From positions 1-64,000 of IMG/VR virus record IMGVR_UViG_3300036945_000242: a DNA stretch of 64,000 nt; one strand, written 5' to 3'. Numbering within the stretch: position 1 is the first letter of the stretch; every line of letters begins with the position of its first letter. The notes under the pieces were generated by a model. It was not told where the DNA came from. It saw only the letters and a list, made by a program, of their open reading frames with translations, and ran no database searches. The position numbers were made by a program, and so were the translations under genes. Of the stretch, positions 9,113 through 62,120 are shown piece after piece. Source of the stretch: a virus (lineage: Duplodnaviria; Heunggongvirae; Uroviricota; Caudoviricetes).

Positions 9113-9534
9113 AATTTATTTTTAATATGTGAACCGTGTATTCTACACATGATGTTATTATTATAATAAGCATCACTTTCCAATACTCTATGAGCGAATT
9201 GTTCCCTTGCTTCCACGTAAGAACATTCGGATTTAGACTTACAAAAAAACAAAATCTCTCGAGTAAATTTATCTACACCGAGAGATTCTATATCTTTGGT
9301 TAGTTCTAAGGATGACCCGTAATAGGTCATCCAATCAGAATCAATTTTACTTTTAATCTTTTTCTTTTTCTTAGTTCCGTTTTTCAATGTAACAGTTTTA
9401 ACCGTTGTCTTGGAAAACTTCGCTAATTTCTTACCGATATACTTACGACCGCTAGTCGTATTTTCAATAAGGTAAACGAACCCCACACAATCGTCGGGTA
9501 ATTCGTTTACCTCAGTTCCTTGATAAAACCACAT
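9109..9534 (-). CDS. denA: GIY-YIG endonuclease, EndoII (DenA)-like
   Basis: GFVYLIEN...KYIGKK GIY-YIG core. 141 aa vs 136 aa for T4 EndoII. Adjacent to the nucleotide-metabolism genes as denA is in T4. Confidence 0.5.
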   Translation of the reverse strand: MWFYQGTEVNELPDDCVGFVYLIENTTSGRKYIGKKLAKFSKTTVKTVTLKNGTKKKKKIKSKIDSDWMTYYGSSLELTKDIESLGVDKFTREILFFCKSKSECSYVEAREQFAHRVLESDAYYNNNIMCRIHGSHIKNKL

Positions 9535-11658: not shown

Positions 11659-12271
11659 ATACTAGGGCTACTTGGCGGTGTTCTTCTTGGGTACTTTCAT
11701 CGGTACGAACTTCACAGTAGTGAATCCATGAGCGGAGCGAACCTTTCATGTACATACGACTAGCCGTTAGACCTTCGGGGAGAATAGCCCTAGCTTGTTC
11801 TTTAGCGATACCTAAAGATAAGGCTTGGGAATAAACGTCTCTTACATTGGCAATTAACTTACGCTGTTCATCTTCCCACCAACGAATAAGTTCTTTATCA
11901 TCAGTAGGTAAACTCTTTTGGCGGTTAGTTGGGTCTTGTAAGCGAGTTTCACGAATAACAAATTCTAACTCTTTAACAGGGTCAGCGTATCGTTGGCTAA
12001 ACTCTTGGAACACAAAGCTTTTGTGTCTTATAGCTTGGCGAGCGATATCTCTGGTAGTATTGATTTCAAGCGTTAAATCCACCATTTCTAACGGGCTAAA
12101 GTGTTTATGTCTTAGTAAATAATTTACTAACTTATCAGCAGTCTCATGATTCATTTGGTTGCTGGGGTTACTTACCCTAGCGCAATAGGCGATAAGTTCA
12201 TGGGGAAGGGTTAAACCCTCAGCCACTAATTCCGCCGATGGGGTGGTATATGATATAAGTCTTACTTGCAT
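11597..12271 (-). CDS. thyX: flavin-dependent thymidylate synthase ThyX
   Basis: ThyX signature RHKSFVFQEFSQRY (RHR-X7-S...SQRY). 224 aa. Confidence 0.75.
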   Translation of the reverse strand: MQVRLISYTTPSAELVAEGLTLPHELIAYCARVSNPSNQMNHETADKLVNYLLRHKHFSPLEMVDLTLEINTTRDIARQAIRHKSFVFQEFSQRYADPVKELEFVIRETRLQDPTNRQKSLPTDDKELIRWWEDEQRKLIANVRDVYSQALSLGIAKEQARAILPEGLTASRMYMKGSLRSWIHYCEVRTDESTQEEHRQVALVCAKVIAKLFPIINNINKQES

Positions 12272-16228: not shown

Positions 16229-17326
16229 TTATTCGAATAATTGACCAGCTAACGCTAAGGCTACATTTTCTTCAATATACTCAGCGTCTTCGTCGGATAT
16301 ATATACTTCTCCGTCGATATAGGTAGCGATAACATCATCGCTAAATTCTTCAGACAAATATAATTCTTCTTGTTCGTCTACGCAAACAAAAACTGCTTGT
16401 CCACTTTCAATACTTTCCTGAATAGCTTGTTCGGCTAAAGATTGTAAGCTTTCTAAAATAAAGTAAGCTCTGCTTTCCGCTTCTTCATTAACCTTCTTTT
16501 CCATACGGTCTTCAGCTTTTTCTAGACCTCTTATTCTATTAGTAATCTTATCGGCAGTTTTTACGCTAACCTTACGAGTACGAGCTACGTCGCCTAATTT
16601 TTTATTTAAATCGACTTTAGCCTTACTTGAATAAGATTTAAGCGTATCATAGTTTAACTCATTAATGATTGCGCTTTTGTCTAATTGGAGACCGTCTTCC
16701 AACACCATTTCTCCGTCTACGTACGCTGCTATTGTATCTTCGTTGTATTCTTCGGAGATGTATATATTTTCATCATCATCCACACACAGGAAAAAAGCTA
16801 GGTCTTCAACCAAGCTTAACTCTGCAGCGTATTCTGCTAATTGTTTTAAATCCGTCATTTCTAATCCTTCGTTTTGTGATTTTGTTTTATCGCCCATATA
16901 TGCAGCGATCGCCATCTCAGCCCTCTTTTTACTAGATTTACCTTTAAATTGAGGGGCTGTAGATTTTTTGAAGTCTTTAACGTATTCGCCCGCCCCCATA
17001 GATGGGTCTAAGGTTTCGTCCATACGCTTTTTCTCTTGTCTTTGCGCTTTTCGTACAGCTGCTCGTTGCTTAGATATAACCGCTTTAGCGGTAGGACTCT
17101 TCTTTACAACAGGCATTTTATACAGATAGGGCGATCCAGGATCGCCTAAGTCCACCGTGGGTTTAACGCCTTGAAGCAGATTATTAGCGAACGTAATTCG
17201 GTTTGGGCGAATACGTCTAGTTCTAGTTTTTCCCGTAACCTTATCTACCCATTTTCTTATAGAAAATTCGGCGGCATATACGTCTTCTTTTATATTACTC
17301 ATTTTGTTAAAGCGGTAAGCATCCAT
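16229..17326 (-). CDS. acidic protein with internally duplicated domain
   Basis: Two copies of a motif like FFLCVDDDENIYISEEYNEDTIAAYVDGE / VFVCVDEQEELYLSEEFSDDVIATYIDGE. Confidence 0.35.
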   Translation of the reverse strand: MDAYRFNKMSNIKEDVYAAEFSIRKWVDKVTGKTRTRRIRPNRITFANNLLQGVKPTVDLGDPGSPYLYKMPVVKKSPTAKAVISKQRAAVRKAQRQEKKRMDETLDPSMGAGEYVKDFKKSTAPQFKGKSSKKRAEMAIAAYMGDKTKSQNEGLEMTDLKQLAEYAAELSLVEDLAFFLCVDDDENIYISEEYNEDTIAAYVDGEMVLEDGLQLDKSAIINELNYDTLKSYSSKAKVDLNKKLGDVARTRKVSVKTADKITNRIRGLEKAEDRMEKKVNEEAESRAYFILESLQSLAEQAIQESIESGQAVFVCVDEQEELYLSEEFSDDVIATYIDGEVYISDEDAEYIEENVALALAGQLFE

Positions 17327-17736
17327 CTATGTTTATTATGAACGTCTAATCTACTCGCAGCAAAATCCGCTAACCCTTGTTTATTTTGGGCGGTAGCGGT
17401 AGTAAATAATTTATTTAACGATTGTATTAGAGTATCATTATCGGCAATAAGAGTATTTATCATCAACAAAGAACTCATCTTTTCATCGCCACATTGCTCA
17501 ATAGTAGCTAGGTCTAAGATAGTTTGTAGGCTAGATGGAGCGAATTCGTCTATCGCTCTAATTTCCTCAGCTATAACGTCAACCGCATCGTGTACTTCTT
17601 CGTATAAATCGCCGAAGAATCCGTGAAGCTGAATAAAGTCTATACCAGTAACATTCCAATGGAAAGAGTGAGTCTTGTAGTAAAACGCAAACATATCCGC
17701 TAGAACAATTTTAGCCGTGATTTTTAATTCATCCAT
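17299..17736 (-). CDS. Dps-like ferritin (DNA protection during starvation family)
   Basis: 145 aa. Ferroxidase-site pattern YKTHSFHWNVTG...FIQLHGFFGDLYEEVHDAVDVIAEEI typical of Dps. Confidence 0.55.
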   Translation of the reverse strand: MDELKITAKIVLADMFAFYYKTHSFHWNVTGIDFIQLHGFFGDLYEEVHDAVDVIAEEIRAIDEFAPSSLQTILDLATIEQCGDEKMSSLLMINTLIADNDTLIQSLNKLFTTATAQNKQGLADFAASRLDVHNKHRWMLTALTK

Positions 17737-19194: not shown

Positions 19195-19696
19195 ATTCCC
19201 TCATCTTAGTACCCGATACGCCTGAAGTATCATCAGCGTCCGGATCCCTATCGCCAGCTGAGTGTACGGTAATTTTATTGAAGTTATAGCTACCGTGTTT
19301 CCCTGGAACTCCGTTATATTTATGTAACAACTCACTCATAGTCCCCACCCTATCTGACCCCGCTATAACGTGGAGGTGGGTTATCCCGCTATCCGACATA
19401 TCCGAAGCGTGGTGTAAGATGGTGGGACTCGCCTTAGAGGAAGCTTTGATGTTAGTTCCTGGAAATGCCGCTTTAGCGAACTTAACTTTATCCTCGGGGG
19501 ATAAGGGGTTTTTCTTAGCGTCGTGGGAATGAGATAAAACCACTACGTGATCAGCGTTGTGTTTAGCTGCCACCTCGTGTACTTTATCTATTACTTTTTC
19601 GTGTCCAGCGGTGGGCGGGTTCATACGCCCATAAACTAAAACCCCGTGAGTATCGGGCTTGGCCGATTCGATTAGGTATTGAAAGAACGATTTCAT
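19079..19696 (-). CDS. nucleotidyltransferase, NMN/NaMN adenylyltransferase-like (cytidylyltransferase fold)
   Basis: H/TxGH motif YGRMNPPTAGH and C-terminal SGTKMRE (ISSTxIR-like). 205 aa. Confidence 0.5.
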   Translation of the reverse strand: MKSFFQYLIESAKPDTHGVLVYGRMNPPTAGHEKVIDKVHEVAAKHNADHVVVLSHSHDAKKNPLSPEDKVKFAKAAFPGTNIKASSKASPTILHHASDMSDSGITHLHVIAGSDRVGTMSELLHKYNGVPGKHGSYNFNKITVHSAGDRDPDADDTSGVSGTKMREYAASGDKENFHANLPSKMPERHRTALFHTLRKSMGHEE

Positions 19697-20886
19697 TATT
19701 TTCCGAACCTTAACATATTAGAACGAGCAAACTCGGCTCGGTTTACTAGCTTGGTAGGCTTACCTTCGTGATGAACTACAAAGCCCTCTGGTTTTGATTT
19801 AGTACCGTTAATGCTATGGTCTAGACCGCCTTCGTGTTGTTCTAGCGTAGATACTAAAACGTTCTTAGCTTTTTGTAAGTGGTCGTGCATCTTTAGTAAA
19901 TTATTATAGTGCTCTTTATTATTTTCGATATGGTGGATATCGTCGTGTAACGCTTGAGACTTAGCGTTTTTACTCTTTTCTGTCTTAACCTTAGCTATTT
20001 CTTTTTCGGCTTTTGCTGCGATATGACCTTGTAACCCTTTGTGAGTAGGGGTTTCGCCTGTTCTTACGGTGTGGTTAATGTAGGCTTTTAACGCTCCACC
20101 CTCGCCATGGTGCTTCTCGGTAGCGTCGTACATCTTATCACCGTGTTTAGCGTGAATTGATTTAGCGGCGTCTAAGTGACCTTTAAACTCTTTACTAGCC
20201 GCAGGCGTTAAGGCTACTTTACTGGTATCGTGCTCGGCGGTTTTATGGAATACGTCTTTGTGTTTACCGAAACCGCTAGTATCTGGATGTGGACTAGCTT
20301 TCATATCCGTAATATCGTTACCGTGATATTGGGTATGGGTTACTAAGCCTAATTTAGCGTGTTTAACCGCTTCGGCTTCTTTTCCTTTAGCGGTGTAGGT
20401 AATTGTGTTTGGCGTAAAGGAAGCGTTACCGTTATCGTGGTGGTGGACGTCGCCGTGAGTAAACATAACGTCGCCCTGATATACCCCGTGTTTAGGAGCT
20501 ACCTTGGGTAAGTGGTGGAGGGCGGATTTAAGCTTTTCTACCAATCCAGGAGCGTGTCCGTGGTTAGCTTCAATATCTTCGTTAGAGTAGTTTATTTTCG
20601 GAGTCTTGTTGAAAGCCGATTTAGTTGCTACGAAGAACTTATTATTCTCGGGGTGGTGGCCATACACTAAGCTAGGCGACCCGTCATACTTCATTGAAAG
20701 GTCAGTGCTATGCGCACCTGCTTTAACGTGGTCGTGAGCTTTTTGTAGAACGCCAAAAGCGTGAACCGCCCCTTTATACCCCGAGTTTAACGGGTGGTCT
20801 TCAGCGTGTTCAATATGTTTTAGCTTATCGTCGCTGGAGGCTTCCGCAGCCTCCATAAGCATTTTAAATTCTTTAAAATTAAGCAT
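19696..20886 (-). CDS. His-rich RNA ligase-like nucleotidyltransferase (Rnl1-type motifs)
   Basis: Motif I MKYDGSPSLV (T4 Rnl1 has TKEDGSLVS). Motif IV/V EGFVVHHEGKPTKL (T4 has EGYVAV...HFKIK). About 12% His. Confidence 0.45.
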   Translation of the reverse strand: MLNFKEFKMLMEAAEASSDDKLKHIEHAEDHPLNSGYKGAVHAFGVLQKAHDHVKAGAHSTDLSMKYDGSPSLVYGHHPENNKFFVATKSAFNKTPKINYSNEDIEANHGHAPGLVEKLKSALHHLPKVAPKHGVYQGDVMFTHGDVHHHDNGNASFTPNTITYTAKGKEAEAVKHAKLGLVTHTQYHGNDITDMKASPHPDTSGFGKHKDVFHKTAEHDTSKVALTPAASKEFKGHLDAAKSIHAKHGDKMYDATEKHHGEGGALKAYINHTVRTGETPTHKGLQGHIAAKAEKEIAKVKTEKSKNAKSQALHDDIHHIENNKEHYNNLLKMHDHLQKAKNVLVSTLEQHEGGLDHSINGTKSKPEGFVVHHEGKPTKLVNRAEFARSNMLRFGK

Positions 20887-22423
20887 TTACGTTTTCTCTG
20901 ATTAGGGTTGTTATATATCTAACTTGCTCAGTCGTTAAGCGTCTATTTCGAGTTTGCTCTAGATTGAGTGAAGATTGGTTAGCGGTAGGTATAGGGGTTA
21001 CTGGATTGGCTACCTTCTTTTTAGCTCTAGTCTTTTTCGGAGCATTAGGATCCTTCTTAGCTCTAGGCTTTTTCGGAGCGTCAGGATCCTTCTTAGCTCT
21101 AGGCGTTTTAATTTTAATCTCTTTACCAGAAGATACCATAGAAGACTGCGGGTCGCTTTGTGAGCTAAACTTCATATCTTGTCTAGCGATTTCGCGATGG
21201 GTATCATTTCCGTCCTTATCCTTTTCCTTTTTAGAGAAAACTACGCTACCACCTCTAGCCTCAATGTGTAATTTTTCTGGTTCTGACGTATGGTTTTCGT
21301 AATGTTTTTCCACATCTGTTATAAGGTGGTGTTTTATATTATCGCCTGAACCGTATGTTACGTGTCTATAATGTTCGTGTGTATCAGTAGATCCTGGATA
21401 TATGGGTTGATTATGCATAGGCGGATTTTTAGCACTTAACAAATGAACCAATTTAGCTTGTCTTTCTTCGTGCGTCGAATCCTCTCTATTTAAATGGTCG
21501 GCGAGGTCTTTAGCGGTCTTATGTAAAACGGTAGTATTTTTACGTTTAATGTCCGCTTTGACTTCTTCGGGTTGAGCCTTAAGCCAATCTTTTCTCTTTT
21601 CAGCCCCATGAACCTTAACTTTTCCCTTAGAGTTAGTGTAGGTCGTAGGCATCGTAGGATGAGCGTCTACAACGGATTTTCTATGAGCGATTAAATTCCC
21701 TTTAGCGTTTGGACCAGAATGTTCTATCCCAGGATTAGCTAATGGCACTTCGGGGCTATTTTTATCAGTCTTCTTTAAACTAATACCAGTAAATTTTGTA
21801 TGCTTTTTCTCATCATCTTTATGGTGAGAATGTACTACGATATCCGATGGGTCTTCATTTTGAGATGAATTGAATTTACCGCCAGTAGCACGTCCGATAT
21901 CTCCAGACTTTGAAGTCCAAACAACGTGCTTAATTACATGACCTTTGCCGTCAAAATGTTGCTTAATATCTGAGGCTGCAGATTTAGCTCTAGCCGCAGT
22001 TCTTGCGTACTCTCCAGGATGATTTTTTTCTAAGGTATCTTTAAGCTTATCGTGAGCTTCTTCGGGAGAATCACCTTCTATGTTAGGATGTTTTTCCATG
22101 TGTTTACCGCCATTAAGGTGGTAACCGACTAGAAGCTCGTGTAACTTTCCAGTTAAATCGGCTTTAGAAACCTTTTTCTTTTTCTCTTCTTCGGATTCTT
22201 CTTCTGGTTCTTCATCCGGATCTTCTTTAGATTCGTAGACGTACTTTGCTACGAGGATTTCCTCGCCATCTTCGTTCTCATCTACAATCCAATTAGTTAT
22301 ATTGTCTTGTTCTTGTTGTTCTCTCATAAGAGAGTCGATATATATACGCTCTTCTTGTTTACCGCTTAGGTACTGACTAAAGTTAATCATCATTTCCCCT
22401 ATATTCTTGTTTAACAGTTCCAC
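20879..22423 (-). CDS. His-rich protein with acidic tract and C-terminal basic tandem repeats
   Basis: 514 aa. Repeats PRAKKDP[DN]APKK near the C-terminus. No catalytic motif recognised. Confidence 0.35.
   Translation of the reverse strand: MELLNKNIGEMMINFSQYLSGKQEERIYIDSLMREQQEQDNITNWIVDENEDGEEILVAKYVYESKEDPDEEPEEESEEEKKKKVSKADLTGKLHELLVGYHLNGGKHMEKHPNIEGDSPEEAHDKLKDTLEKNHPGEYARTAARAKSAASDIKQHFDGKGHVIKHVVWTSKSGDIGRATGGKFNSSQNEDPSDIVVHSHHKDDEKKHTKFTGISLKKTDKNSPEVPLANPGIEHSGPNAKGNLIAHRKSVVDAHPTMPTTYTNSKGKVKVHGAEKRKDWLKAQPEEVKADIKRKNTTVLHKTAKDLADHLNREDSTHEERQAKLVHLLSAKNPPMHNQPIYPGSTDTHEHYRHVTYGSGDNIKHHLITDVEKHYENHTSEPEKLHIEARGGSVVFSKKEKDKDGNDTHREIARQDMKFSSQSDPQSSMVSSGKEIKIKTPRAKKDPDAPKKPRAKKDPNAPKKTRAKKKVANPVTPIPTANQSSLNLEQTRNRRLTTEQVRYITTLIRENVNA
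21000..21112. repeat. About 42-bp tandem repeat (2.5 copies) inside the CDS, encoding PRAKKDPxAPKK
   Basis: ggatccttcttagctctaggctttttcggagc repeated in tandem. Coding, not CRISPR. Confidence 0.6.
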
Positions 22424-22791
22424 TTACGCAAAGCTAGGGCTTTACGGGTAGGTCTTCCTCGTTCGTCTTTCATTGGACCGTCCACACCACTCATACGTGC
22501 GCAAAAGCTTTTACGTCGTTTAGCGTCTTTACTATCGGGGTCTAATTTTGAGGGTTCTTTCGTTACCGCCATCTTTAAATTTCCGCCAGTCTTAGCATTA
22601 TAAGCGTCTACGCCTTTTTGAGTTAAACCGCCTGTAGAACTTTTATGTCCTTTAGCGTCTATTGCGTATTCTAATAAACCTTCGTCTACGGGTACACAAT
22701 TAGGTACAGTTTTACCTTTTTTATTTTTCATGCCTAGTTGCTTATAGCCTGTCCAACAAGCTTCTTCGATGTATTCCGTAAATTTTAGCAT
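22411..22791 (-). CDS. hypothetical protein
   Basis: 126-aa ORF downstream of the promoter cassette at 22851-22884. Confidence 0.3.
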   Translation of the reverse strand: MLKFTEYIEEACWTGYKQLGMKNKKGKTVPNCVPVDEGLLEYAIDAKGHKSSTGGLTQKGVDAYNAKTGGNLKMAVTKEPSKLDPDSKDAKRRKSFCARMSGVDGPMKDERGRPTRKALALRKWNC

Positions 22792-22898: not shown

Positions 22899-22918
22899 AA
22901 ACCCGCCGAAGCGGGTTG
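22899..22918. terminator. Hairpin terminator (AACCCGC-ttcg-GCGGGTT) with T-rich flanks on both strands
   Basis: 7-bp GC-rich stem with UUCG tetraloop on minus, followed by TTTATTT. Ends the operon 22923-28008. Confidence 0.55.
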
Positions 22919-22922: not shown

Positions 22923-23465
22923 TTAAATACCTAGATTAGAATTTATATATTGTAAAATGGTAGCTTGGTGTTCTAACGTACAATTATCAAACTCTTGGGT
23001 AAACGCCATATATTCAAAGTTAGAAAGAATATTAGATATTTTAGTATCCCTACCCTTTAAGAACGTTTCCGATTGGTTAGATCCTCTATCTATATACCGC
23101 TGTTTTAAAACGGATTGCGGAGCCTTTAACGCTACGATATTAAATTCGCAATTTGGTAAGGAATACAGGTGGTCGTAGAATTTACCGTTAGTTAGGCGGT
23201 CACCTTCAAAGATAACATTAGAAGTAGTTTCCCGCATAAACTTTTCAGCATTAGGTTGCACACTCATACCCAACCTATCAGTACCCGCAAAAACCTCACC
23301 CTCCTCATACTTACCCAAAACGTATAAGTCTAACGCTTCGCAGTACATAGCGTGAATCATAGGCTCGGGTTCAACCGATTGCCAAGTTTTACCCTCCATA
23401 AATTTACGGAATAACGTAGTTTTACCAGTACCTGGAACGCCACAAACAGCAATAATTTTTCTCAT
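22923..23465 (-). CDS. P-loop kinase (Pnk-kinase/AAA_33-like); candidate DNA or nucleotide kinase
   Basis: Walker A AVCGVPGTGKTT (T4 Pnk has TIGCPGSGKST). Walker B VIFEGD. 180 aa. Last gene of the operon. Confidence 0.5.
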   Translation of the reverse strand: MRKIIAVCGVPGTGKTTLFRKFMEGKTWQSVEPEPMIHAMYCEALDLYVLGKYEEGEVFAGTDRLGMSVQPNAEKFMRETTSNVIFEGDRLTNGKFYDHLYSLPNCEFNIVALKAPQSVLKQRYIDRGSNQSETFLKGRDTKISNILSNFEYMAFTQEFDNCTLEHQATILQYINSNLGI

Positions 23466-24481
23466 GTAAACATCTCCAATCCTATTAGTTGTGCTTCCTC
23501 GTCGCTAAACATCCACTCTAACTTTTCAAATTTACCTGTTGCTAGAAATAGCGGATACTTTTCTTTCATAATTCCACGCTTTACGTCTAAGCGGTTATTG
23601 ATACTTTCGTTTCTAGCTTGCCATAAAACTTCCCAATCAATACCATACCAACCGTCTTGCCCGCAACGCTGAATTTCTTCCGCTTGTCGGTCTAGGTAAT
23701 ACCCTAGATAACGACCGTTGGTCGTTCGGAATAGTTTCTTATACGAACATAGACAAGTTTCCATAGTAAAGTAATCAATCTGACTAGCCAACTCAGGGAA
23801 TCGGCTACGCATTTCAATAAGAATATCCTCACCAAACGATTCAAGATTATTATATTCTTGTACGCTTAACTTCTTATCATAATCCTCATCCCTACCCGAA
23901 GCTAATAATAAGCCGTTACGATGCGAACGAGAACCGTCATAATCGCTTAACATTAAAGAACTAGGCTCAACGTCAATACCAGCGGTGTGCTTTAAGTGTT
24001 GCATATAAAACCATGTAGAGTACCTACCAAACTTGTGTAAATTAGTTTTAAGGGCTACCCATAAAGAATCAAAGTTCTCCTTAGAATCTCCTACGTAGAA
24101 CTGCTCAAGCCGTTCACGTTGAGAACTTTGACCGATAAACTTTTGATACGATTCAAACATTGACGGTAAATGACCTTTGTTCCACTTGGTATCGGTTTGG
24201 TATCGGAGTCGCTTATAATTTTCCGTATTCCACTTCTCGATTCTATCTACCGTTGCTAACTCAAAATCTGGGAACTCGTTCATAAGAACCCAAGAAGTTG
24301 GTAAATAGTACGTATTACCGTAAAACCACGCTAACCAAAGTCTTTGCTCGTCGTTGTGTTCGTAACGGGTATTCAAATAATTAGTCGCCCATACCGCTGG
24401 GTCGCAGTCGTTAAATTTCAACGACCACGCATACCAACGAATAAATCCTTCTCTACGATTTTCTTTTAAACGATAATCCAT
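23462..24481 (-). CDS. W/Y-rich all-helical protein; candidate base-modifying transferase (aGPT-Pplase-like?)
   Basis: 339 aa, no catalytic motif recognised. ATGA-coupled to the kinase. Confidence 0.3.
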   Translation of the reverse strand: MDYRLKENRREGFIRWYAWSLKFNDCDPAVWATNYLNTRYEHNDEQRLWLAWFYGNTYYLPTSWVLMNEFPDFELATVDRIEKWNTENYKRLRYQTDTKWNKGHLPSMFESYQKFIGQSSQRERLEQFYVGDSKENFDSLWVALKTNLHKFGRYSTWFYMQHLKHTAGIDVEPSSLMLSDYDGSRSHRNGLLLASGRDEDYDKKLSVQEYNNLESFGEDILIEMRSRFPELASQIDYFTMETCLCSYKKLFRTTNGRYLGYYLDRQAEEIQRCGQDGWYGIDWEVLWQARNESINNRLDVKRGIMKEKYPLFLATGKFEKLEWMFSDEEAQLIGLEMFT

Positions 24482-24484
24482 ATA

Positions 24485-25033
24485 TTAAAATTGTGTTAGC
24501 GAAGCTATCTTATTTACGCTAGCGGTATCAAAGATTTCAACACACCCACCCTTTCCCTTTTTATTAACTGCATTATAGATAACCGAATCAGTATAATCGT
24601 ATTCGCACTCAGAGAACGAATCACTGGTTATACGGAAAATGCTTAACTGGCAACCCGATTTTTGTTTACCCCAAAACTTGAATCCTATTTTCTCATAGAA
24701 ACCAACCGCAGATGGTTCAGACGATACTCGAAAGAAAGAAACGCCACGATTTTTCATATCGCTTAGCGAATTTTCACATAGAACTCTAGCCGCACCCTTA
24801 CCCCTGTGATTAGCGAAAGTATGTAAAAGTTGTAAGTTAGCTACATGAGGCTTTCGTTTAGATACGGTAGTGATGATGGCTGCCATCAATTGCGTACCCT
24901 CAAAAACGCCCCAACACTCGTCCCACTGCTTTTGCATATCCGCCTTAGCGACAAACGTTTTAGCAAACTTATCAGCGGGGTCGGTACTAATAGCAGAGAT
25001 AAATTCTTCTCTGGAACATTTACACAACTTCAA
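24485..25033 (-). CDS. GNAT family N-acetyltransferase
   Basis: GNAT motif A HRGKGAARVL and FYEKIGFKF. Confidence 0.55.
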   Translation of the reverse strand: MKLCKCSREEFISAISTDPADKFAKTFVAKADMQKQWDECWGVFEGTQLMAAIITTVSKRKPHVANLQLLHTFANHRGKGAARVLCENSLSDMKNRGVSFFRVSSEPSAVGFYEKIGFKFWGKQKSGCQLSIFRITSDSFSECEYDYTDSVIYNAVNKKGKGGCVEIFDTASVNKIASLTQF

Positions 25034-25898
25034 CGAACGTTCTCACTTTCTTACCACGGCTATCGTCGTGTTTGGTATTATTCCAGCCAATAAATTGAGC
25101 TAAGTCCCACTGCATTGGAGGGAACTTATAACCGTTAGCCGAAATAAGCTCATTAACGTCTGGACCATCGTTTAACGCTGCGTAGAGGAAATCTTGAACA
25201 AAGCGGAAACACGACTCAAGCTCTTCCCTATCAAGAGTACCACGGAAAAGGCGGAACTCAATTGTATCAATATGCTTAAGAGCGTACATATTTATAGCGT
25301 AGCGGAATGGGCGACCCATAGATACACCGTCCTTACCTGCAGCGTGCATTTTGATAAAAGAATCAAAATCGGTAGCTAGGTTCAAAATATTATCGCTCAT
25401 ATAATCGGGCATAGCTCGACCGCCATCAAACTTCAAATACATCTTGGAACCCTTAGCCCCTTTCATTTGATTGTGTTCAAAGAAACCATAAACACGGTCA
25501 ATAGTATCGGCTTGATTCTTCTTAATATAAGCGGTTAGACGCTTCAAAGCGTCAATATCATCCCGTAGTCCTGGAACTCGACAATGAATATGGGTATGAG
25601 CTGTAACACCAACCGTTGGCGAATGACCCGCATCGGTGAATAATTTTCGCAGCTCAAAGTAGCGATCTACCTGCTCCGCCCAAGTTTTAGTTGGCTTAGT
25701 GTTTATCTCTCCGCCGAAAGGAGGGTCTATACCTAGAGGGTCAGCGCATACGTTTTTATGTGGGTCTCGGAGGTTGATAATATCTCGTTCCGAATATTCC
25801 CAAGCACCCAGATTAACTGGGATTTCAAACGAGCGGGGAATATCGCCCCACTCAATTTCCATACCGTATGTAAATTTATCAGACGGATATTGTTTCAT
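25020..25898 (-). CDS. GCS2/glutamine-synthetase-like amidoligase (Amidoligase_2-type)
   Basis: N-terminal YGMEIEW and IEFRLFRGTLD (E.R motif) typical of carboxylate-amine ligases. Overlaps the GATase gene end. Confidence 0.5.
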   Translation of the reverse strand: MKQYPSDKFTYGMEIEWGDIPRSFEIPVNLGAWEYSERDIINLRDPHKNVCADPLGIDPPFGGEINTKPTKTWAEQVDRYFELRKLFTDAGHSPTVGVTAHTHIHCRVPGLRDDIDALKRLTAYIKKNQADTIDRVYGFFEHNQMKGAKGSKMYLKFDGGRAMPDYMSDNILNLATDFDSFIKMHAAGKDGVSMGRPFRYAINMYALKHIDTIEFRLFRGTLDREELESCFRFVQDFLYAALNDGPDVNELISANGYKFPPMQWDLAQFIGWNNTKHDDSRGKKVRTFVEVV

Positions 25899-26598
25899 AT
25901 TTTACCTTTTGTAAGTCTTTAGCCTCAATACTTATTCGTTCAACAGTAACCGTTAGATTCTTGTCGATTTTGTGATAAGCGTTCATATCAACTTCAACAG
26001 TTTCGCCCTTTAGGTTAGCTCTGCGTGGAATATCCCTAGTAGAAGTAATTATACTACCATTTTCAATGGAAGTAAAGTATAAAGGGCGTTTACCGTTACG
26101 ATAATACGTTATAGATTTAGTATCTTTACCCAATTCACATACCGCCATTGAAGCGTCTTGAAACTCTTCCAAAGGCGATAACGAATGTAATACTAATTCG
26201 CTATCGTTCCTAGTGGCGCACGTATAACCGTAATTACTTTCCCATTGGCTAGGATCCTCTTGAGTAATAACCCCGTTATGGGCGATTGAAGTTGTTTCGT
26301 TTGAAATAGGCTGATTATACAATAGGTCAGAAGTAGAATATCTACAATGACCTATTAAATACAAGTTACCGTCAGCGTTCACTAAATCCGATAATTTATC
26401 ATCCGTTAAATGGATATCGACAAATTTATCTGCTGATATAGAATCCGAGATAGTAACAATATCAGCCGACCACCATGGTAGAAAGGAAATACCCGTAGCG
26501 TGTTTACCCCTAATCATAGACTCGGTAAACACTTTTCGTAGGAGAGCTAAGTCTCCTACGGTCGGATTCAATATAATGCTTCCAACGATTGCGCACAT
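25879..26598 (-). CDS. stand-alone class-II (Ntn) glutamine amidotransferase domain protein
   Basis: Protein starts MCAIVGS (Cys2 nucleophile as in MCGIVG of PurF/GlmS/AsnB). 239 aa, no synthetase domain. Its ATG abuts the TAA of the upstream gene. Confidence 0.6.
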   Translation of the reverse strand: MCAIVGSIILNPTVGDLALLRKVFTESMIRGKHATGISFLPWWSADIVTISDSISADKFVDIHLTDDKLSDLVNADGNLYLIGHCRYSTSDLLYNQPISNETTSIAHNGVITQEDPSQWESNYGYTCATRNDSELVLHSLSPLEEFQDASMAVCELGKDTKSITYYRNGKRPLYFTSIENGSIITSTRDIPRRANLKGETVEVDMNAYHKIDKNLTVTVERISIEAKDLQKVKYETISV

Positions 26599-28008
26599 TT
26601 AGAAAAAATCCTCTAAGCTAGATTGTTTAACAGACTCGGGATGGTTTTTAAGCATCTCTTCATAACCAATTTTACTGGCGCAATAATCGTACCAAGCTTG
26701 CTCAGTCCACATTCCAGGAGAAATACCGTTCCAACGTAAACGCTGTAAAGGGTGTGATTTATCTAATCGGCGACTCTCCACATACTCAAACCTAGCGTTC
26801 TCATACTCATAAGAACCCAAGTTCAACATACCCTCACGTAAATAACAAACTAACGAAATACGCTCAGCTTGCTCATCGTGTAAAGTAATTTCGGTATTAC
26901 CGTGAAGAACTTCGTGGTTATTGATTAACAGTAAATCTCCAGGACGTACATTAACCGCAATTCTATATTCTGGGGCTACTAAGTAACCGCCTGTATAGTT
27001 ACCGTTATTAGATAATACTAATAGGTTAGATAAGCCCTGAGTATAATCGCCAGCGTCATAATGAGCAGCAGTTCTAAAGGTTCTATTAACAGTAAGCGTA
27101 GTGAATGGCGTTCCAGGAACTCTAAATCTATGATCAATAGTTTCAGCAGCACGCATTTGGTTACCATAACGCCATGGTAATAGGTCTTTAAAACCAGTAG
27201 CCAAGGTTTGTAAAAACGGGTAAGCCCTAGCAAATAACTCAGGATTATCCCGTGTATAGTTAGTAGTTCTACCGTAAGGAATACGTGGATAACGGTCAAA
27301 CCAACCAGCAATACCCGAATATACACCAATACCATAAGTCGTAGTGCTCATAATGGTAGAGATTCTATCCGCAGAGTCAGCCCTAGCCTCACGACTTAAC
27401 GGTTTAATACTATCGACCCATGAGTCAAAATCAAAGCCGTTAGTAAAGCCATGCTCAGGGAAACGGTCAATAACCCATACAAAGTTCTTACCACCACCAC
27501 CCGCTAACTTACGATCTTCTTGAGTAGGGTACTTAGAACGAACCGTGTCAATAACGTCCTCAACTTCAAGAGCTGCTAATCGGGCTGACTTTAACTCGGA
27601 TAACATATCGTATTGGTAGTTAGTAACCCAAATACGAGTATCGTCCGTAACCGTAACGCCCTCTTTAATACCTGAAGCTAAACCTCGATTTTCGGTTCGG
27701 GTAGCAGCTTGACGTAAACCAATATACGCTTCGTCTTGAATTTCTTTAGGGAAAAAGTTCTTACGGAATTTAAAGGCGATTTTTAATTCGTTAGTACCCA
27801 TATGACAAGAAGAACAATCTCTAGGCGTATCGCAGGTACTTTGAGTTACTACGTCGCAGTCAGGAGGCATATACACATCACAATCTTCGTTAATAAGCGT
27901 ATCATAGTGTGATTCGTTTAAGAACATACCAATTAAGTGTTCACAATCGTGTTTAGTATCTGCTACAATAACTCTAACGTTTCTATCTTTTTCTTTAATA
28001 ATCGCCAT
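26599..28008 (-). CDS. 2OG-Fe(II) dioxygenase (HxD...H) with N-terminal Cys/His cluster; TET/JBP-like candidate
   Basis: Cys cluster HDCEH...CDVYMPPDCDVV..CDTPRDCSSCH. Facial triad AHYDAGD about 50 aa before HEVLHG, then RISLVCYLR. Confidence 0.5.
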   Translation of the reverse strand: MAIIKEKDRNVRVIVADTKHDCEHLIGMFLNESHYDTLINEDCDVYMPPDCDVVTQSTCDTPRDCSSCHMGTNELKIAFKFRKNFFPKEIQDEAYIGLRQAATRTENRGLASGIKEGVTVTDDTRIWVTNYQYDMLSELKSARLAALEVEDVIDTVRSKYPTQEDRKLAGGGGKNFVWVIDRFPEHGFTNGFDFDSWVDSIKPLSREARADSADRISTIMSTTTYGIGVYSGIAGWFDRYPRIPYGRTTNYTRDNPELFARAYPFLQTLATGFKDLLPWRYGNQMRAAETIDHRFRVPGTPFTTLTVNRTFRTAAHYDAGDYTQGLSNLLVLSNNGNYTGGYLVAPEYRIAVNVRPGDLLLINNHEVLHGNTEITLHDEQAERISLVCYLREGMLNLGSYEYENARFEYVESRRLDKSHPLQRLRWNGISPGMWTEQAWYDYCASKIGYEEMLKNHPESVKQSSLEDFF

Positions 28009-31379: not shown

Positions 31380-31916
31380 TTATTTATGCGGTACGTCAAA
31401 TACGAAAGTAATTCTAACCACATCGCCCGTGTTTTTAGTACCGTGCGGTAACTTGTTATTAAACCAAAGTAAATCGCCCGCTTTAACGCTAACCGTCTCG
31501 TCTCCAACGGTATAGTCGTATTCGCCTTGGATAGCTAGGTGATACCTATCCCTAGTTTGGTAATAATTACCAATGTCAATATGCGTACCAACCTCACCGC
31601 CAACGGGTAGCGATAAGAACCCGCAACGGGAGTAGGTTTTAAAGTGGCGTTTCATAAAGCGAATAACTTCGGTATGGCGTTCTACTGCGGACGTTGGAAT
31701 ACAAATATCCGTATCGCCCACGTATTGATCCATACTTGTTACGCCACCCATAACCAACTGCAGCACCCCCGCTTTTACCTCGGGGAAGCCGTAGCTTAGC
31801 ATAGATTTAGCCCCATCCGCCCTAGTTTGAACGCCCCAATCTTCGGGGTTATCTTCTAGTTGTTTAAGAATCTTAGAGACGTTAATCCCCCGCTTAATCA
31901 ATTTAATATTATCCAA
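31380..31916 (-). CDS. cupin-type 2OG-Fe(II) oxygenase (Asp/Asn beta-hydroxylase-like)
   Basis: GTHIDIG (HxD) and LPHGTKN (distal His). 178 aa. Confidence 0.4.
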   Translation of the reverse strand: MDNIKLIKRGINVSKILKQLEDNPEDWGVQTRADGAKSMLSYGFPEVKAGVLQLVMGGVTSMDQYVGDTDICIPTSAVERHTEVIRFMKRHFKTYSRCGFLSLPVGGEVGTHIDIGNYYQTRDRYHLAIQGEYDYTVGDETVSVKAGDLLWFNNKLPHGTKNTGDVVRITFVFDVPHK

Positions 31917-40216: not shown

Positions 40217-41179
40217 TTAGAACTCGAACGCTTCACCGACAGTTACGGTAACAACTTTCTTAGGCTTAGAAGCTTCAGCCGCAGCTGCAGCCTTAGCAGC
40301 TAATTCTTCAGCAGTTGGCTCTGGAACACACAATTTATCGAATAAGTCAATAAACGAAGCACGGGTAGCTTCATCAAAGCGGTTACAGCACAACTCTACA
40401 GCTTTCTTTCTGTCTTTAAAGATAGAAAAAGCTTTAACAATATGAACCATACGACGTGTAGTGATAGTTTCATCAGCACCACCGCTATCGAATGTTTTAC
40501 GAACAGCATCAGCCCACTTAACTAAGGCGGAAGCGAATACGTCATCTAAACAACTTTCAGCGGTCATTAAGTTTTTAACAATCTTAAGCTCGATAGAAGC
40601 GGATGGATATTCTTGGTTAAAGGTAATAGCGAAACGCTCTAAGAAAGCTTCGTTCAATACGTTAGTACCGATATAACGACCGTCATCACTACCTTTACCT
40701 TTAGTATTAGCGGTGGCGATAATATTGAAACCAGACTTAGGATAGATAAGCTCATTCTTTAACTTGAAGTAATAAGGCTTACCCTCTAAGATAGGTTGTA
40801 AACACAATAAAGTATTAGCAGCACCCGCATCAATCTCGTCAAGTAACAAAGTAGTACCGTTACGCATAGCGATAAGGACTGGACCTTCCACAATTTCAAC
40901 GTTACCGTCTACGAGCGTTTTAGAACCGATAAGTTGGTCTTCATCGGTCATAGCGTTTAAGTTTACACGAATTAAAGGCTTGGCTAACTTAGCACAGATT
41001 TGTTCTACCATAGTAGATTTACCGTTACCAGTTGGACCAGAGATATAGGTAGGATAGAACACACCAGATTTGATGATCAATTCCATATCTTTAAAATTAC
41101 CGAAAGGAACGAAGTTAGCGTCTTTTTTAGGTACTAAAGAGAAAGCGTCAGAAGATAAGTTAGTCATAGTAAAATTCAA
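40217..41179 (-). CDS. cobS: CobS-like MoxR-family AAA+ ATPase
   Basis: Walker A YISGPTGNGKST, Walker B LLLDEID. About 320 aa as in aerobic cobaltochelatase CobS. Confidence 0.65.
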   Translation of the reverse strand: MNFTMTNLSSDAFSLVPKKDANFVPFGNFKDMELIIKSGVFYPTYISGPTGNGKSTMVEQICAKLAKPLIRVNLNAMTDEDQLIGSKTLVDGNVEIVEGPVLIAMRNGTTLLLDEIDAGAANTLLCLQPILEGKPYYFKLKNELIYPKSGFNIIATANTKGKGSDDGRYIGTNVLNEAFLERFAITFNQEYPSASIELKIVKNLMTAESCLDDVFASALVKWADAVRKTFDSGGADETITTRRMVHIVKAFSIFKDRKKAVELCCNRFDEATRASFIDLFDKLCVPEPTAEELAAKAAAAAEASKPKKVVTVTVGEAFEF

Positions 41180-41225
41180 AGTTAGTTTAACAAAATTTAA
41201 GAGTTATCACTCTATACAGGTATTA

Positions 41226-41257
41226 TACCCTAAACTTAGTTGTAAGTAAAGGGTATA
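41226..41257 (-). promoter_or_regulatory. Early promoter cassette, identical copy of 8004-8035
   Basis: Minus CCTTTACTTACAACTAAGTTTAGGGTATAAT. Confidence 0.5.
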
Positions 41258-41266
41258 ATATAATTT

Positions 41267-43429
41267 TTACGCAATCAATTCAACAAAGCGGTTTAATAAA
41301 ATCTTATTTTTGATTTTATTAGCCATAGAAGCCGTAAATGCAGAAGCCACATCTTCAACAGAATCTTCGGTATCGACCTCAATATTCGATTCGCTAGTGT
41401 TAGATTTAGCTAACGCATCGCTAGGAATATAGAAGAACTCGTCATGCGGGGAACCGCTAACCGATACGTATTGATTCTTAGCGTATTGTTCCACGGCTTC
41501 TTTATATGTAGTAAAAGTTCTCTCATAACGCTTCAATTCGTTATAACCTCTACCACAATTAGAAGTTAAGACATTACTCTCAAAAAAGTCCTTACTAGCT
41601 AAGCTACCACCGATATAAAAGCCAATACTAGGACATTTATATCTATCTTTAATCATTTTAATTAAAGAGAAAGTTTGTACTGCCGAAGAACCCATAGGAT
41701 ATTCGATTTTAGTCTTTTGGTCTCTAAGAATAACCTCTCTCTTATAACCACCGTTATTGTAATATACTGAAGTAGATTCGCCGTCAGTTAAAGTGATAAA
41801 AGAGAACTTTTCCACTTTAGTAGAAGCTAAAAAATGATCAATATATTCGGTCATATAAGCCAAAGAATTATTCAGCGGAGTAGAACCAGTGTCAAAACCC
41901 TCAATTCTACGGAAAGGACGAGTTCTAAACAAACGCTTAGCCATAGTCTTGAATTCAGAAGAACTCATCTCATTAGAGAAAAATTCCAATAATCTAAACT
42001 CAGAACACTCATTAGTCAGCATACCATCATTTCTGTGTAGATTAGTGCTAGCTGCAGCTCTGTGGTCTCTGATTTGAGAGGTAGTAGTGGTATTATCGCT
42101 GAACGCTAATACTTTATACTTAATCTGGTTTTTATGACAGAAGTAAGCTAAAGGAATAAGTTGAGCCATAGTATCGTCTAACATATCATTCATAGAACCA
42201 GACCAATCTAGCAAGAAAATCATACCATGGTTCTTACCGTTAGGTAATGTAGTAATGCTCTTGAATAAGTCTTCTTTTAACTTATAAGCGTAAAGCTTAC
42301 GAGTGTCTAAAGCACCGCTCTTAGAAACTTGGGCACGTTTGTATTGAGTGGCACTCTTACGCATCTCGAACTCTTTAGTCAAATAAGACACCGCACTATT
42401 CATAGAGGTGTAAAACTTATCAAACGCACGAGGGCTTTCAGCAACAGTTTTAGTTTTAGCTAAAATTTCCTGATAACCCATAACACGTTCTAGTAAAACG
42501 TTTTCGTCTACTTTGGTATAGGCGTAGTCAATACCGTTATCTACACCAACGTTATCTTTAATAGCGTTTAAGGTTTTAGATTCTAAAGCCGATTCATCTA
42601 GAGGGGAAGGCTTGTTACCGCTTTTGCTAGAGCCATTATTTTGACCTTCGGCGTCTTGGTTGTCTTCGCCATCTTCATCACCGTCGGAAGAGTCACTTTC
42701 AGAATCGTTATCATCTTCATCATCACTTTCTTGGTCAGATTTATCGGAGTCGCTTGTATCATTGTCGCTAGAGGGCGTACCACTCTGGCTACCGTTAGAT
42801 TTACCCTTTGAATCTTTATCAGATTCGCCTTTATCCTTACCGTCGCCATCCTCACCTTCCTCACCGTCGTCAGACTGAGGTTCTTGTTGTTTCTTAGAGT
42901 ATTCTAAGATTTCACGAGCAATTCGATTAACGTCATCTTCAGAAACGCAAGCCTCTACCGCATCATACAAATCACGCTCTTCAGCCGTAAAACTGACGCC
43001 AGCGTTATGACCTAACTTAGAATATAAGTTAATGCGGTCAATTAAGTTGAGTTGAGAAAACGATACCTTTTTACCAAAAATACCCTTATCTGAAAGCTCA
43101 GAATAACCGATAGAGAAGTCTTTAGCGATACCTGGATACTTACGCTTCACCAACTTCTCAACACGGATATTATCTACAACTTTAGAATATTGGTTTAGCA
43201 ACTTATCGTTACCGACTAAAGTTTTTAGCTTTGAGGTAGTATAAAGGGCGTGACCTACTTCTTGACCGATTAAAGCGGTCTCAGCCTGTTTAGAAATACC
43301 CTTCCACTGGGGAAGTACCAAAGTACGGGTTTTGATGTCGAACTTTGATTCATTAACCTTTTTACGAAAAATATTGATATTTTCGGTAGCTAATAATTTA
43401 GCGGTAAGGTCTAACACGTTTTGTTTCAT
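41267..43429 (-). CDS. cobT: CobT-like protein: long acidic D/E/S tract plus C-terminal vWA domain (MIDAS DxSxS)
   Basis: vWA MIDAS FLLDWSGSM. Acidic low-complexity region at about 42604-42883. Partner of the upstream MoxR ATPase. Confidence 0.6.
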   Translation of the reverse strand: MKQNVLDLTAKLLATENINIFRKKVNESKFDIKTRTLVLPQWKGISKQAETALIGQEVGHALYTTSKLKTLVGNDKLLNQYSKVVDNIRVEKLVKRKYPGIAKDFSIGYSELSDKGIFGKKVSFSQLNLIDRINLYSKLGHNAGVSFTAEERDLYDAVEACVSEDDVNRIAREILEYSKKQQEPQSDDGEEGEDGDGKDKGESDKDSKGKSNGSQSGTPSSDNDTSDSDKSDQESDDEDDNDSESDSSDGDEDGEDNQDAEGQNNGSSKSGNKPSPLDESALESKTLNAIKDNVGVDNGIDYAYTKVDENVLLERVMGYQEILAKTKTVAESPRAFDKFYTSMNSAVSYLTKEFEMRKSATQYKRAQVSKSGALDTRKLYAYKLKEDLFKSITTLPNGKNHGMIFLLDWSGSMNDMLDDTMAQLIPLAYFCHKNQIKYKVLAFSDNTTTTSQIRDHRAAASTNLHRNDGMLTNECSEFRLLEFFSNEMSSSEFKTMAKRLFRTRPFRRIEGFDTGSTPLNNSLAYMTEYIDHFLASTKVEKFSFITLTDGESTSVYYNNGGYKREVILRDQKTKIEYPMGSSAVQTFSLIKMIKDRYKCPSIGFYIGGSLASKDFFESNVLTSNCGRGYNELKRYERTFTTYKEAVEQYAKNQYVSVSGSPHDEFFYIPSDALAKSNTSESNIEVDTEDSVEDVASAFTASMANKIKNKILLNRFVELIA

Positions 43430-53393: not shown

Positions 53394-53448
53394 TCTTTTC
53401 TCCTAACTGGGATAGTTCTATATTTATTTAGTATTTATGCGATTTCTC

Positions 53449-54105: not shown

Positions 54106-54110
54106 CTTAT

Positions 54111-54560: not shown

Positions 54561-54563
54561 ATT

Positions 54564-56011: not shown

Positions 56012-56063
56012 TTTCTTTCCTTTTATGGTGGTTATTTTATTTAGTTAAAACCTAACCTTGCGG

Positions 56064-62114: not shown

Positions 62115-62120
62115 AATACG

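Follow-up and report, generated by a model that had tools for sequence, protein, structure and literature searches.

The window analysed here is a 64,000-nucleotide stretch of the genome, roughly 150-170 kb in size, of an uncultured T4-like phage (Caudoviricetes). It carries on its minus strand a module of six genes, in the order TET, GATase, amidoligase, GNAT, amino-acid:DNA transferase and P-loop kinase, followed by a terminator-like element:

26599..28008, minus strand: long-form phage TET/JBP (5mYOX) Fe(II)/2OG dioxygenase gene, 469 aa (ATG-to-stop ORF)
25879..26598, minus strand: class II (Ntn) glutamine amidotransferase domain protein, 239 aa (Pfam GATase_6, GATase_7)
25020..25898, minus strand: divergent amidoligase (glutamine-synthetase-fold carboxylate-amine ligase), 292 aa (similarity to the gene of locus L007)
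24485..25033, minus strand: GNAT acetyltransferase, 182 aa, TTG start as listed (Pfam Acetyltransf_10, _1, _7, _9)
23462..24481, minus strand: amino-acid:DNA transferase (ADDT/AADT, formerly aGPT-Pplase clade 2), 339 aa (Pfam PF18724, E 3e-19; PHROG 3271)
22923..23465, minus strand: P-loop kinase (Ploopntkinase3), 180 aa, P-loop GVPGTGKT, candidate 5-hmdU DNA kinase (Pfam PF18751)
22900..22917, minus strand: terminator-like GC-rich hairpin and T-run closing the module (7-bp stem with 5 GC pairs, then TTATTT)

Intergenic gaps within the module are 0, -20, -14, +3 and -4 nt, the GATase start codon directly abutting the TET stop codon. The module is separated from the next gene by 131 nt containing a promoter-like site at 22881-22853; a sigma-70 promoter scan did not rise above background (33 sites against 26.9 expected), so no promoter is claimed. 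The preliminary description, made from the sequence alone, had called the dioxygenase the first gene of an operon. It is the first of six packed, terminator-bounded genes, but it lies only 15 nt downstream of a co-directional gp41 helicase gene and lacks a convincing promoter of its own. Its wider surroundings are nucleotide-metabolism and replication genes.

The GATase protein begins MCAIVG and has the catalytic Cys. The 292-aa protein shares 31% identity with the Amidoligase_2 gene of L007 (E 2e-35) and matches Pfam PF12224 directly, though weakly (E 0.017). Three other identities for this gene were rejected: a ParB-like activator, in view of the L007 similarity and the Pfam match; a TET-associated glycosyltransferase, as it shows no resemblance to the L007 TAGT gene; and a methyltransferase, suggested by a DPPF motif lacking Pfam support. 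Full-length tblastn matches to the ADDT protein occur in 379 phage records, mostly from Salmonella, Klebsiella, Escherichia and Dickeya hosts. The P-loop kinase scores 34.6 bits against PF18751 (cutoff 27), and its pairing with ADDT recurs in Cr30 and in a mycobacteriophage group; it has no BLAST-detectable relation to the validated 5-HMUDKs of phages ViI, M6, PhiW-14 and SP10 (no tblastn match at E 1e-3). None of the TET, amidoligase and ADDT proteins received a name from NCBIfam.

The dioxygenase gene is real, was correctly recognised and is of a kind already described in phages. The 469-aa frame originally proposed matches the ATG-to-stop ORF exactly and lies on the minus strand, with the following parts:

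27790..27867, minus strand: Insert I, residues 48-73, with the Cys4 motif C51-X7-C59-X5-C65-X2-C68, a putative structural Zn knuckle (indel pattern in homologs)
27334..27669, minus strand: Insert II, residues 114-225, a mostly helical expansion of ~110 residues (long/short-form alignment)
26833..27267, minus strand: double-stranded beta-helix (DSBH) catalytic core, residues 248-392 (Pfam match, invariant columns, CcTet/TET2 motif alignment)
27061-27063, minus strand: Fe ligand H316
27055-27057, minus strand: Fe ligand D318
26902-26904, minus strand: Fe ligand H369
26860-26862, minus strand: 2OG-binding R383
26602..26760, minus strand: C-terminal extension, residues 417-469, missing from ~300-aa short forms (alignment A3)

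The protein belongs to the family Tet_JBP (Pfam PF12851), which it matches with 97 bits (cutoff 34.9; E 9e-28) over model positions 19-164 of 164. All of the DSBH motifs first read from it, AHYD, HEVLHG and then R, are present (H316/D318; H365/H369; R383), with HEVLHG 49-53 residues after AHYD and R383 another 14-18 residues on, and the compact HxD-to-H spacing is NgTet1-like, as had been stated, and not TET2-like. Alignments A1, A2 and A3 show H316, D318, H369 and R383 to be invariant in long and short forms alike, the catalytic residues align motif by motif with those of CcTet and TET2, and the HxD...H motif with its downstream Arg is found in all 92 TET translations (91 related loci and the window). 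More than 2,280 homologs of the 469-aa dioxygenase were found, which places the gene far beyond chance. A megablast search of GenBank phages with 8 kb of sequence surrounding the gene gave no match. Pfam matches to TauD, CsiD and DUF1869 were disregarded as weak and below cutoffs.

The best matches to the predicted structure are TET-family DNA oxygenases (TET2, NgTET1, CcTet and CMD1), human TET2 giving the longest alignments (about 480-500 columns, TMq 0.45), and the DSBH fold of the model resembles TET-family structures more closely than it does those of other 2OG oxygenases. Protein and small-molecule hydroxylases, top similarity to which the preliminary description had named as evidence against a nucleic-acid oxygenase, scored far below the TET-family DNA oxygenases. 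To our knowledge there is no solved JBP catalytic domain for comparison, so the top structural matches are all 5mC enzymes. The Pfam match, the structural matches and the downstream thymidine-hypermodification genes support the original proposal of a TET/JBP-type nucleic-acid base oxygenase that starts a modification pathway.

In the loci whose flanks were read, TET lies directly behind the gp41 helicase gene, at 15 nt. Of 51 related loci that had sufficient flanking sequence, 30 have a cassette of the GATase/ADDT/kinase type and 19 have one of the GT1 glycosyltransferase type, both types behind the same TET and gp41, and GATase is the first gene after TET in every ADDT-type cassette except that of L076. 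The window and locus L008 have flanks that are 84-96% identical and different cassettes. Within this modular locus, which adjoins replisome genes (polB, UvsX and gp41), the oxygenase stays constant and the downstream cassette is exchanged. Cr30 also links TET, ADDT and kinase, and DLP6, the DNA of which is listed as restriction-enzyme resistant, encodes an orthologue with 46% identity and also carries a TAGT-like gene. The homologs in Cr30, DLP6, S-CBWM1 and HTVC112P bear the propagated label 'SNF2 DNA repair protein', a misannotation that the present results correct.

The preferred reading, given a probability of roughly 0.7, is that this long-form 5mYOX would be a post-replicative thymine-to-5hmU DNA dioxygenase feeding the five-enzyme hypermodification cassette behind it. 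Its substrate is likely thymine, as in JBP enzymes, and not 5mC, as in TET enzymes. Phage 5mYOXs oxidise T both in vivo and in vitro and have GATase, kinase and AADT genes as genomic partners (PMC13229309). The 5hmU in DNA is the substrate of AADT and 5-HMUDK, and some metavirome clusters have TET_JBP in the place of dUMP hydroxymethylase (PMC8989533). Neither the scanned window ORFs nor the 91 loci yielded a ThyA- or gp42-like hydroxymethylase, the ThyA query, like that for C5-methyltransferases, being an approximate sequence. The window does encode ThyX, so the phage makes dTMP. The Pfam scan covered window ORFs outside the structural-gene region 52443-63930 and the gene searches covered 64 kb of the genome, so a C5-methyltransferase or ParB could lie elsewhere. 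No assayed enzyme of the long-form subfamily was found in the literature.

The 469-aa protein is about 40% identical over its catalytic half to the ~300-aa phage short forms, and the N-terminal motifs HYDxxI, NRGxAxG and SGIxGxxDRY are common to both. The long form exceeds the short by about 170 residues, made up of the Cys4 loop, a bigger variable insert and the C-terminal extension, in which W426, N427, G428, W439, H456 and P457 are conserved. Insert II lies between NRGxAxG and SGIxGxxDRY, with helices in the model at 130-144, 152-159, 194-201 and 206-217. Phage T-dioxygenases have an essential 'variable insertion (vi)' domain at consensus residues 73-118 (PMC13229309), and the motif positions suggest that Insert II is its positional equivalent, about 2.7x larger in the alignment than that of the short forms.

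This architecture bears on whether the enzyme would work alone. Phage thymine 5mYOXs comprise the ParB-independent Clade C2 (5mYOX89, 97) and the ParB-dependent Clade C1 (5mYOX176) (O'Toole et al., PNAS 2026, PMC13229309; Burke et al., PNAS 2021, PMC8256090). The window protein is of the same Pfam family as both and, like them, has no adjacent C5-methyltransferase; it differs in being fixed behind gp41 in T4-like genomes. The partners of Clade C1 (GATase, P-loop kinase and AADT) are those in the window, whereas the partners of Clade C2 (glycosyltransferases) are those in the sister phages. Despite these C1-type partners, and although its dioxygenase has, like the ParB-dependent subclass, a C-terminal extension and the GATase/kinase/AADT linkage, the window module has no ParB, and no ParBc domain was found in the scanned window ORFs or among the Pfam hits listed for five relatives over their 10-kb flanks. 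Where characterised enzymes have GATase, kinase and AADT partner genes and a C-terminal extension, they require a ParB activator (PMC13229309), and some Clade C1 enzymes without ParB were reported to oxidise neither T nor 5mC in E. coli (PMC13229309, PMC8256090); dioxygenase activity may therefore depend on an unseen partner. The enzyme would then be a T-dioxygenase inactive alone on dsDNA, its ParB-like or other activator being encoded outside the cassette, whether as a replisome protein or at another site in the genome, and the fixed position of TET behind gp41 would agree with this. Such dependence is unlikely, if a serious candidate. Against it stand both the lack of ParBc in the regions searched and the size of the vi-equivalent insert: vi-domain swaps can abolish ParB dependence (PMC13229309), so the long insert may supply the activator function in cis.

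A further proposal, held tentatively and with the odds somewhat against it, is that the protein is an autonomous, replisome-adjacent T-dioxygenase in which the enlarged insert replaces the ParB needed by short enzymes with the same partners, any contribution from the Cys4 knuckle being optional, and that its cassette yields a thymidine hypermodification outside the known set. If true, one candidate product would be an aminoacyl- or aminomethyl-uracil that is amidated and/or N-acetylated, and the window and L008 would represent natural modification switching behind one constant handle-installing enzyme.

A true TET-like route, in which a phage or host C5-methyltransferase would supply 5mC for the enzyme to oxidise to 5hmC, which the cassette would then decorate, is decidedly improbable. 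The best structural matches are indeed all 5mC oxygenases, two thirds of the genome lie outside the window, and phage clades A and B use exactly such a route (PMC8256090). Characterised phage 5mYOXs also oxidise T and 5mC alike in vitro (PMC13229309), so specificity cannot be fixed from sequence alone. However, the Pfam-scanned window ORFs include no C5-methyltransferase, and no M.HhaI-like C5-methyltransferase was matched in the window or within 10 kb of TET in the 91 related loci, whereas clade A/B TETs adjoin their methyltransferase. A C5-MT co-occurs with only 6% of phage 5mYOX pathways (PMC13229309), and AADT and P-loop kinase have been characterised on 5hmU only (PMC8989533).

There is very little likelihood of a pre-replicative role or a different substrate (free thymidine nucleotides, RNA/tRNA or a small molecule), with the enzyme supplying 5hm-dUTP or a metabolite in place of modifying DNA. 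Classical T-hypermodifying phages do make 5hmU at the nucleotide level (PMC8989533), with which the location among nucleotide-metabolism and replication genes would be consistent, but all characterised TET/JBP members use nucleic-acid polymers, the phage ones DNA (PMC13229309, PMC8256090). The top fold matches are moreover DNA-bound TETs, ThyX shows normal dTMP synthesis, and the sub-cutoff TauD and CsiD matches are confined to the shared C-terminal strands.

The N-terminal region had been likened to the TET Cys-rich domain on the strength of eight or more Cys/His in an arrangement beginning C-x-C. Residues 20-69 do contain six Cys (22, 43, 51, 59, 65 and 68) and four His (20, 24, 34 and 69), but the first element is C-x-H and the only conserved cysteines are C51, C59, C65 and C68, as C22 is conserved at 83% and C43 at 69%. 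H20, H24 and H69 fall outside conserved positions, and H34, nearly invariant among long forms, is part of the HYD motif common to short forms. The four Cys, spaced C-X6-7-C-X3-5-C-X2-C across homologs, are complete in 214 of 233 long-form homologs, and the entire loop is missing from the other 19 (about 8% of homologs that are full-length in other respects) and from every ~300-aa short form. It is inserted in an N-terminal hairpin, with a model pLDDT of about 70. This all-or-none pattern marks the Cys4 loop as an optional insert, probably one that binds Zn, and not as a TET Cys-rich domain, the extra length of the protein coming from insertions. A role for the loop as determinant of the downstream pathway was also dropped, as its presence does not cleanly track cassette type. 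That the N-terminal cluster is homologous to the Cys-rich domain of metazoan TETs, buttressing the DSBH and binding DNA, is scarcely credible given that the loop is an indel, even with the strict co-conservation of four Cys and the long TET2 alignments in its favour.

The analysis establishes the family, the fold, the conserved catalytic residues, the gene linkage and the exchange of cassettes. For the preferred reading of a post-replicative thymine dioxygenase, we infer the thymine substrate, the action at the level of DNA, the sequence of reactions and the end product as follows. With iron bound by H316, D318 and H369 and 2OG by R383, the dioxygenase would act on freshly replicated phage DNA, flipping out a thymine and hydroxylating the C5-methyl group of that base to give 5-hydroxymethyluracil (5hmU), the hydroxyl of which would serve as the handle for the five putatively co-transcribed downstream enzymes. 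Phosphorylation of 5hmU would fall to the P-loop kinase, the amino-acid:DNA transferase would swap the phosphate for an amine nucleophile, and GATase, amidoligase and GNAT would then amidate or ligate, and N-acetylate, the group thus attached. The product would be a hypermodified thymidine shielding the DNA against host nucleases.

This proposed pathway shares its logic, a post-replicative route built on 5hmU, with the thymidine hypermodification clusters of phages ViI, M6, PaMx11, PhiW-14 and SP10 (Lee et al., PNAS 2018; NAR 2021, PMC8989533), with which the module has the AADT (PF18724) and P-loop kinase core pair in common, as well as an acetyltransferase in the case of PaMx11. It differs in that 5hmU would be made in DNA by the dioxygenase, whereas in ViI-type clusters it comes from 5hm-dUTP. 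The module also lacks the PLP decarboxylase, radical SAM enzyme and FAD lyase, carrying GATase, amidoligase and GNAT instead, so the final base is probably different. Metavirome contigs with unexplained amidoligase and glutaminotransferase genes have already been noted (PMC8989533).

Thymine conversion to 5hmU in DNA followed by decoration would also be common to the trypanosomatid JBP1/JBP2 route to base J, which is mirrored more fully by sister phages with GT1 or TAGT cassettes (hydroxylation, then glucosylation). Unlike JBP1/JBP2, the phage enzyme has no JBP DNA-binding domain or SWI2/SNF2 module, and decoration in the window would proceed via a kinase and an amino-acid transferase, where base J uses a glucosyltransferase. 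Identity to human TET2, Naegleria NgTet1 and Coprinopsis CcTet is 11-20%, and in contrast to eukaryotic TETs the phage enzyme lacks a TET-type Cys-rich domain, has T and not 5mC as its probable substrate, and would serve viral genome protection where eukaryotic TETs serve epigenetic regulation.

Phage thymine dioxygenases have already been published, as has the association of their genes with those for AADT, kinase and GATase (Lee 2021; O'Toole 2026), so what this locus adds to the known enzymes is a long form with an enlarged variable insert, representing a widespread, uncharacterised branch of phage thymine dioxygenases in abundant aquatic T4-like phages. DNA hypermodifications guard phages against restriction and CRISPR, and are a source of enzymes for biotechnology and epigenetic sequencing. 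In the cultured phages Cr30 and DLP6, the modification chemistry could be read directly, and the branch would offer a natural test of two points from the 2026 study, namely what may substitute for the ParB activator and why phages modify their DNA post-replicatively.

A 469-codon ATG-to-stop open reading frame occupies 26599-28008, as the preliminary description had it, and lies on the minus strand with a Shine-Dalgarno-like AAGAGG 6 nt ahead of its start codon. Its product (TET) matches Tet_JBP (PF12851) over residues 248-392 at 97 bits, compared with a Pfam gathering score of 34.9; a TauD or CsiD identity was rejected, both Pfam matches being sub-threshold. One dedicated PHROGs family, labelled as unknown function, spans the whole protein. 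The AlphaFold2 model built from 37 homologs (mean pLDDT 86.6, pTM 0.81) retrieved TET-family DNA oxygenases ahead of protein and small-molecule hydroxylases in a Foldseek search of the PDB and, in BFVD, the long forms of phages Cr30 and S-CBWM1 first, followed by ~280-aa phage 'JBP1/TET oxygenase' proteins. The catalytic motifs noticed earlier are present (AHYD at 315-318, HEVLHG at 365-370, and R383 after them), and H316, D318, H369 and R383, which correspond in alignment to the CcTet and TET2 motifs HxD, H and R, are invariant in alignments from the closest homologs through the ~300-aa short forms; H365 is common among homologs, not invariant. No hydroxylase of proteins or small molecules came out as the best match, an outcome that would have counted against the reading as a nucleic-acid oxygenase.

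The window is a single long minus-strand gene run of a T4-like phage (38.6% GC), with genes for family B polymerase, UvsX, a gp41-like helicase, gp44/62/45, UvsW, UvsY and gp23. Its capsid protein is closest to that of Methylophilales phage Melnitz (67%), then Pelagibacter phage HTVC008M (62%), and no close relative was found among GenBank phages at the DNA level. Among cultured phages, Melnitz (MZ577095-8) is thus nearest in its capsid protein; it has a homologue of the kinase described below and gave no TET match. Other genes of the window are:

370-1011 and 9109-9534, minus strand: two SegE-like GIY-YIG homing-endonuclease genes, the latter adjoining the ribonucleotide reductase and ThyX genes
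9733-12271, minus strand: ThyX (11597-12271) and a 641-aa protein with weak class II ribonucleotide reductase matches only, the two ORFs as listed overlapping by ~60 nt
17299-17736, minus strand: ferritin-like gene a few kb downstream of the iron-dependent TET, kept in related loci L005 and L008, which may be relevant to iron supply
19696-22791, minus strand: conserved block of DUF6321, a 514-aa protein and DUF6267, always flanking the variable cassette downstream
31380-31916, minus strand: cupin/Asp-Arg-hydroxylase-like gene flanked by those for DNA polymerase and thioredoxin, kept in L005, L007 and L008, a second putative oxygenase of the replication module
40217-43429, minus strand: CobS-like AAA_5 ATPase and, after it, a protein of 720 aa whose vWA match is weak; marine T4-like phages likewise have such a CobT-like pair

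TET is followed by five enzyme genes, with intergenic gaps from TET to the kinase of 0, -20, -14, +3 and -4 nt:

first after TET, minus strand: class II GATase, starting MCAIVG
second, minus strand: divergent amidoligase
third, minus strand: GNAT acetyltransferase
fourth, minus strand: amino-acid:DNA transferase (ADDT, or AADT; PF18724)
fifth, minus strand: P-loop kinase (PF18751)

A GC-rich hairpin and T-run lie directly after the kinase gene, followed by a 131-nt gap. TET, described previously as the first gene of an operon, does head the modification module, but a separate transcript is not demonstrable since the gp41 helicase gene lies only 15 nt upstream.

The most likely substrate of TET is thymine. 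No C5-methyltransferase, thymidylate-synthase-fold hydroxymethylase or ParB was found by Pfam in the larger window ORFs outside the structural module, and M.HhaI and ThyA probes had no match in the window or the 91 related loci. Phage 5mC-dioxygenase genes adjoin their methyltransferase gene (PMC8256090), whereas phage T-dioxygenases have no adjoining methyltransferase and are linked to glycosyltransferases or to a GATase/kinase/AADT set (PMC13229309), and AADT and 5-HMUDK work on DNA that contains 5hmU (PMC8989533). The missing methyltransferase neighbour, the GATase/kinase/AADT linkage and the 5hmU chemistry characterised for such partner types therefore favour thymine, with some room for doubt because the window is about one third of the genome and characterised phage enzymes oxidise both T and 5mC in vitro (PMC13229309). 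The window encodes ThyX, so dTMP is made by the phage.

With this substrate, TET, whose family and catalytic residues are those of an Fe(II)/2OG dioxygenase, would convert thymine of the phage's replicated DNA into 5hmU by hydroxylation, and the kinase would phosphorylate the 5hmU. The kinase has no BLAST similarity to validated 5-HMUDKs; it is paired with ADDT in the window lineage and Cr30. In mycobacteriophages, genes homologous to each of the two lie at the left end of the genome. The AADT would then displace the phosphate by an amine, following Lee et al., and tailoring might involve GATase-derived ammonia, ATP-dependent carboxylate-amine ligation and N-acetylation. Tailoring genes of the GATase, amidoligase and acetyltransferase types are listed as function unknown by Lee et al. 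(PMC8989533).

An exhaustive search returned 1,627 clusters of TET homologues (representatives at 50% identity), of which ~25 have the ~450-aa architecture and hundreds are ~300-aa proteins with ~40% identity to TET residues 220-410. The N-terminal motifs HYDxxI, FRKN, NRGxAxG and SGIxGxxDRY are common to long and short forms, and their alignment delimits three long-form additions:

residues 48-73: Insert I, holding C51, C59, C65 and C68
residues 114-225: Insert II
residues 417-469: C-terminal extension

The reported Cys/His richness is real, residues 20-69 holding six Cys and four His. The Cys51/59/65/68 set, spaced C-X6-7-C-X3-5-C-X2-C, is complete in 214 of 233 long forms and wholly absent in the other 19, with no partial sets; C22, C43, H20, H24 and H69 fall outside conserved positions, and almost all long forms keep H34. 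The all-or-none pattern of the four Cys argues for a small, putative structural metal site and shows that the loop is dispensable. The proposed analogy with the TET Cys-rich domain does not hold. By motif positions, Insert II lies exactly where O'Toole et al. have their 'variable insertion' (vi) domain, and it is ~2.7 times as long as in short forms; the vi domain is essential and governs ParB dependence (PMC13229309).

TET directly follows gp41 in ten metagenomic and IMG/VR loci with gene tables read (including L003-L009 and the contig of homologue P0020), and in IMG/VR loci a gp41 probe matches at a constant distance upstream. The cassette behind TET varies among the 51 loci that extend 2.5 kb or more downstream: 14 have the gene set of the window, 12 GATase, ADDT and kinase alone, one ADDT and kinase without GATase, three GATase, amidoligase, phosphatase, ADDT and kinase, 19 a GT1 glycosyltransferase cassette with or without a cytidylyltransferase, and two other content. 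The closest fully comparable relative, L008, is 96% identical to the window in UvsX, 91% in DUF6267, 87% in gp41 and polB and 84% in TET, and carries a single GT1 glycosyltransferase (L008:11469-12818) where the window has six genes (22923-26598; five enzyme genes and DUF6321). This is a clean, recent exchange of DNA-modification cassettes behind a constant oxygenase. The minimal class B cassette (L039, L046, L048, L058, L066, L081 and others) consists of GATase, a ~200-aa gene, ADDT and kinase. It occurs as often as the gene set of the window, which suggests GATase plus ADDT as the functional core, with ammonia as a possible nucleophile in the transfer.

Gene neighbourhoods in cultured phages follow the same cassette logic: in Cr30, ADDT and kinase lie no more than 9 kb from TET, sugar-nucleotide genes follow TET in S-CBWM1, and in DLP_6 the second gene upstream of TET is TAGT-like (L001:6051-6914). 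The latter, together with the listing of DLP_6 DNA as restriction-enzyme resistant (PMC8228603), suggests glycosylated 5hmU. The label 'SNF2 DNA repair protein' on TET/JBP homologs in KF301602 (Cr30), KU682439 (DLP_6), MG450654 (S-CBWM1) and MN698246 (HTVC112P) is wrong and has passed from record to record. The window kinase is matched in ~290 mycobacteriophage records as gene 1, at the genome's left end (e.g. KR781349, 25-483), under the name 'adenylate kinase' or 'terminase small subunit'; ADDT, counted separately, is matched in 27 as gene 3 (1765-2775, e.g. MT897910); no TET was seen in records matching either.

Earlier papers already describe the enzyme class and how it is linked to T-hypermodification genes (PMC8989533; PMC8256090; PMC13229309). 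The architecture of the long form (Cys4 loop, larger insert equivalent to vi, extended C-terminus), the Clade C1-type partners without ParB, the fixed place behind gp41 in aquatic T4-like phages and the cassette swap documented between near-identical phages appear to be undescribed so far.
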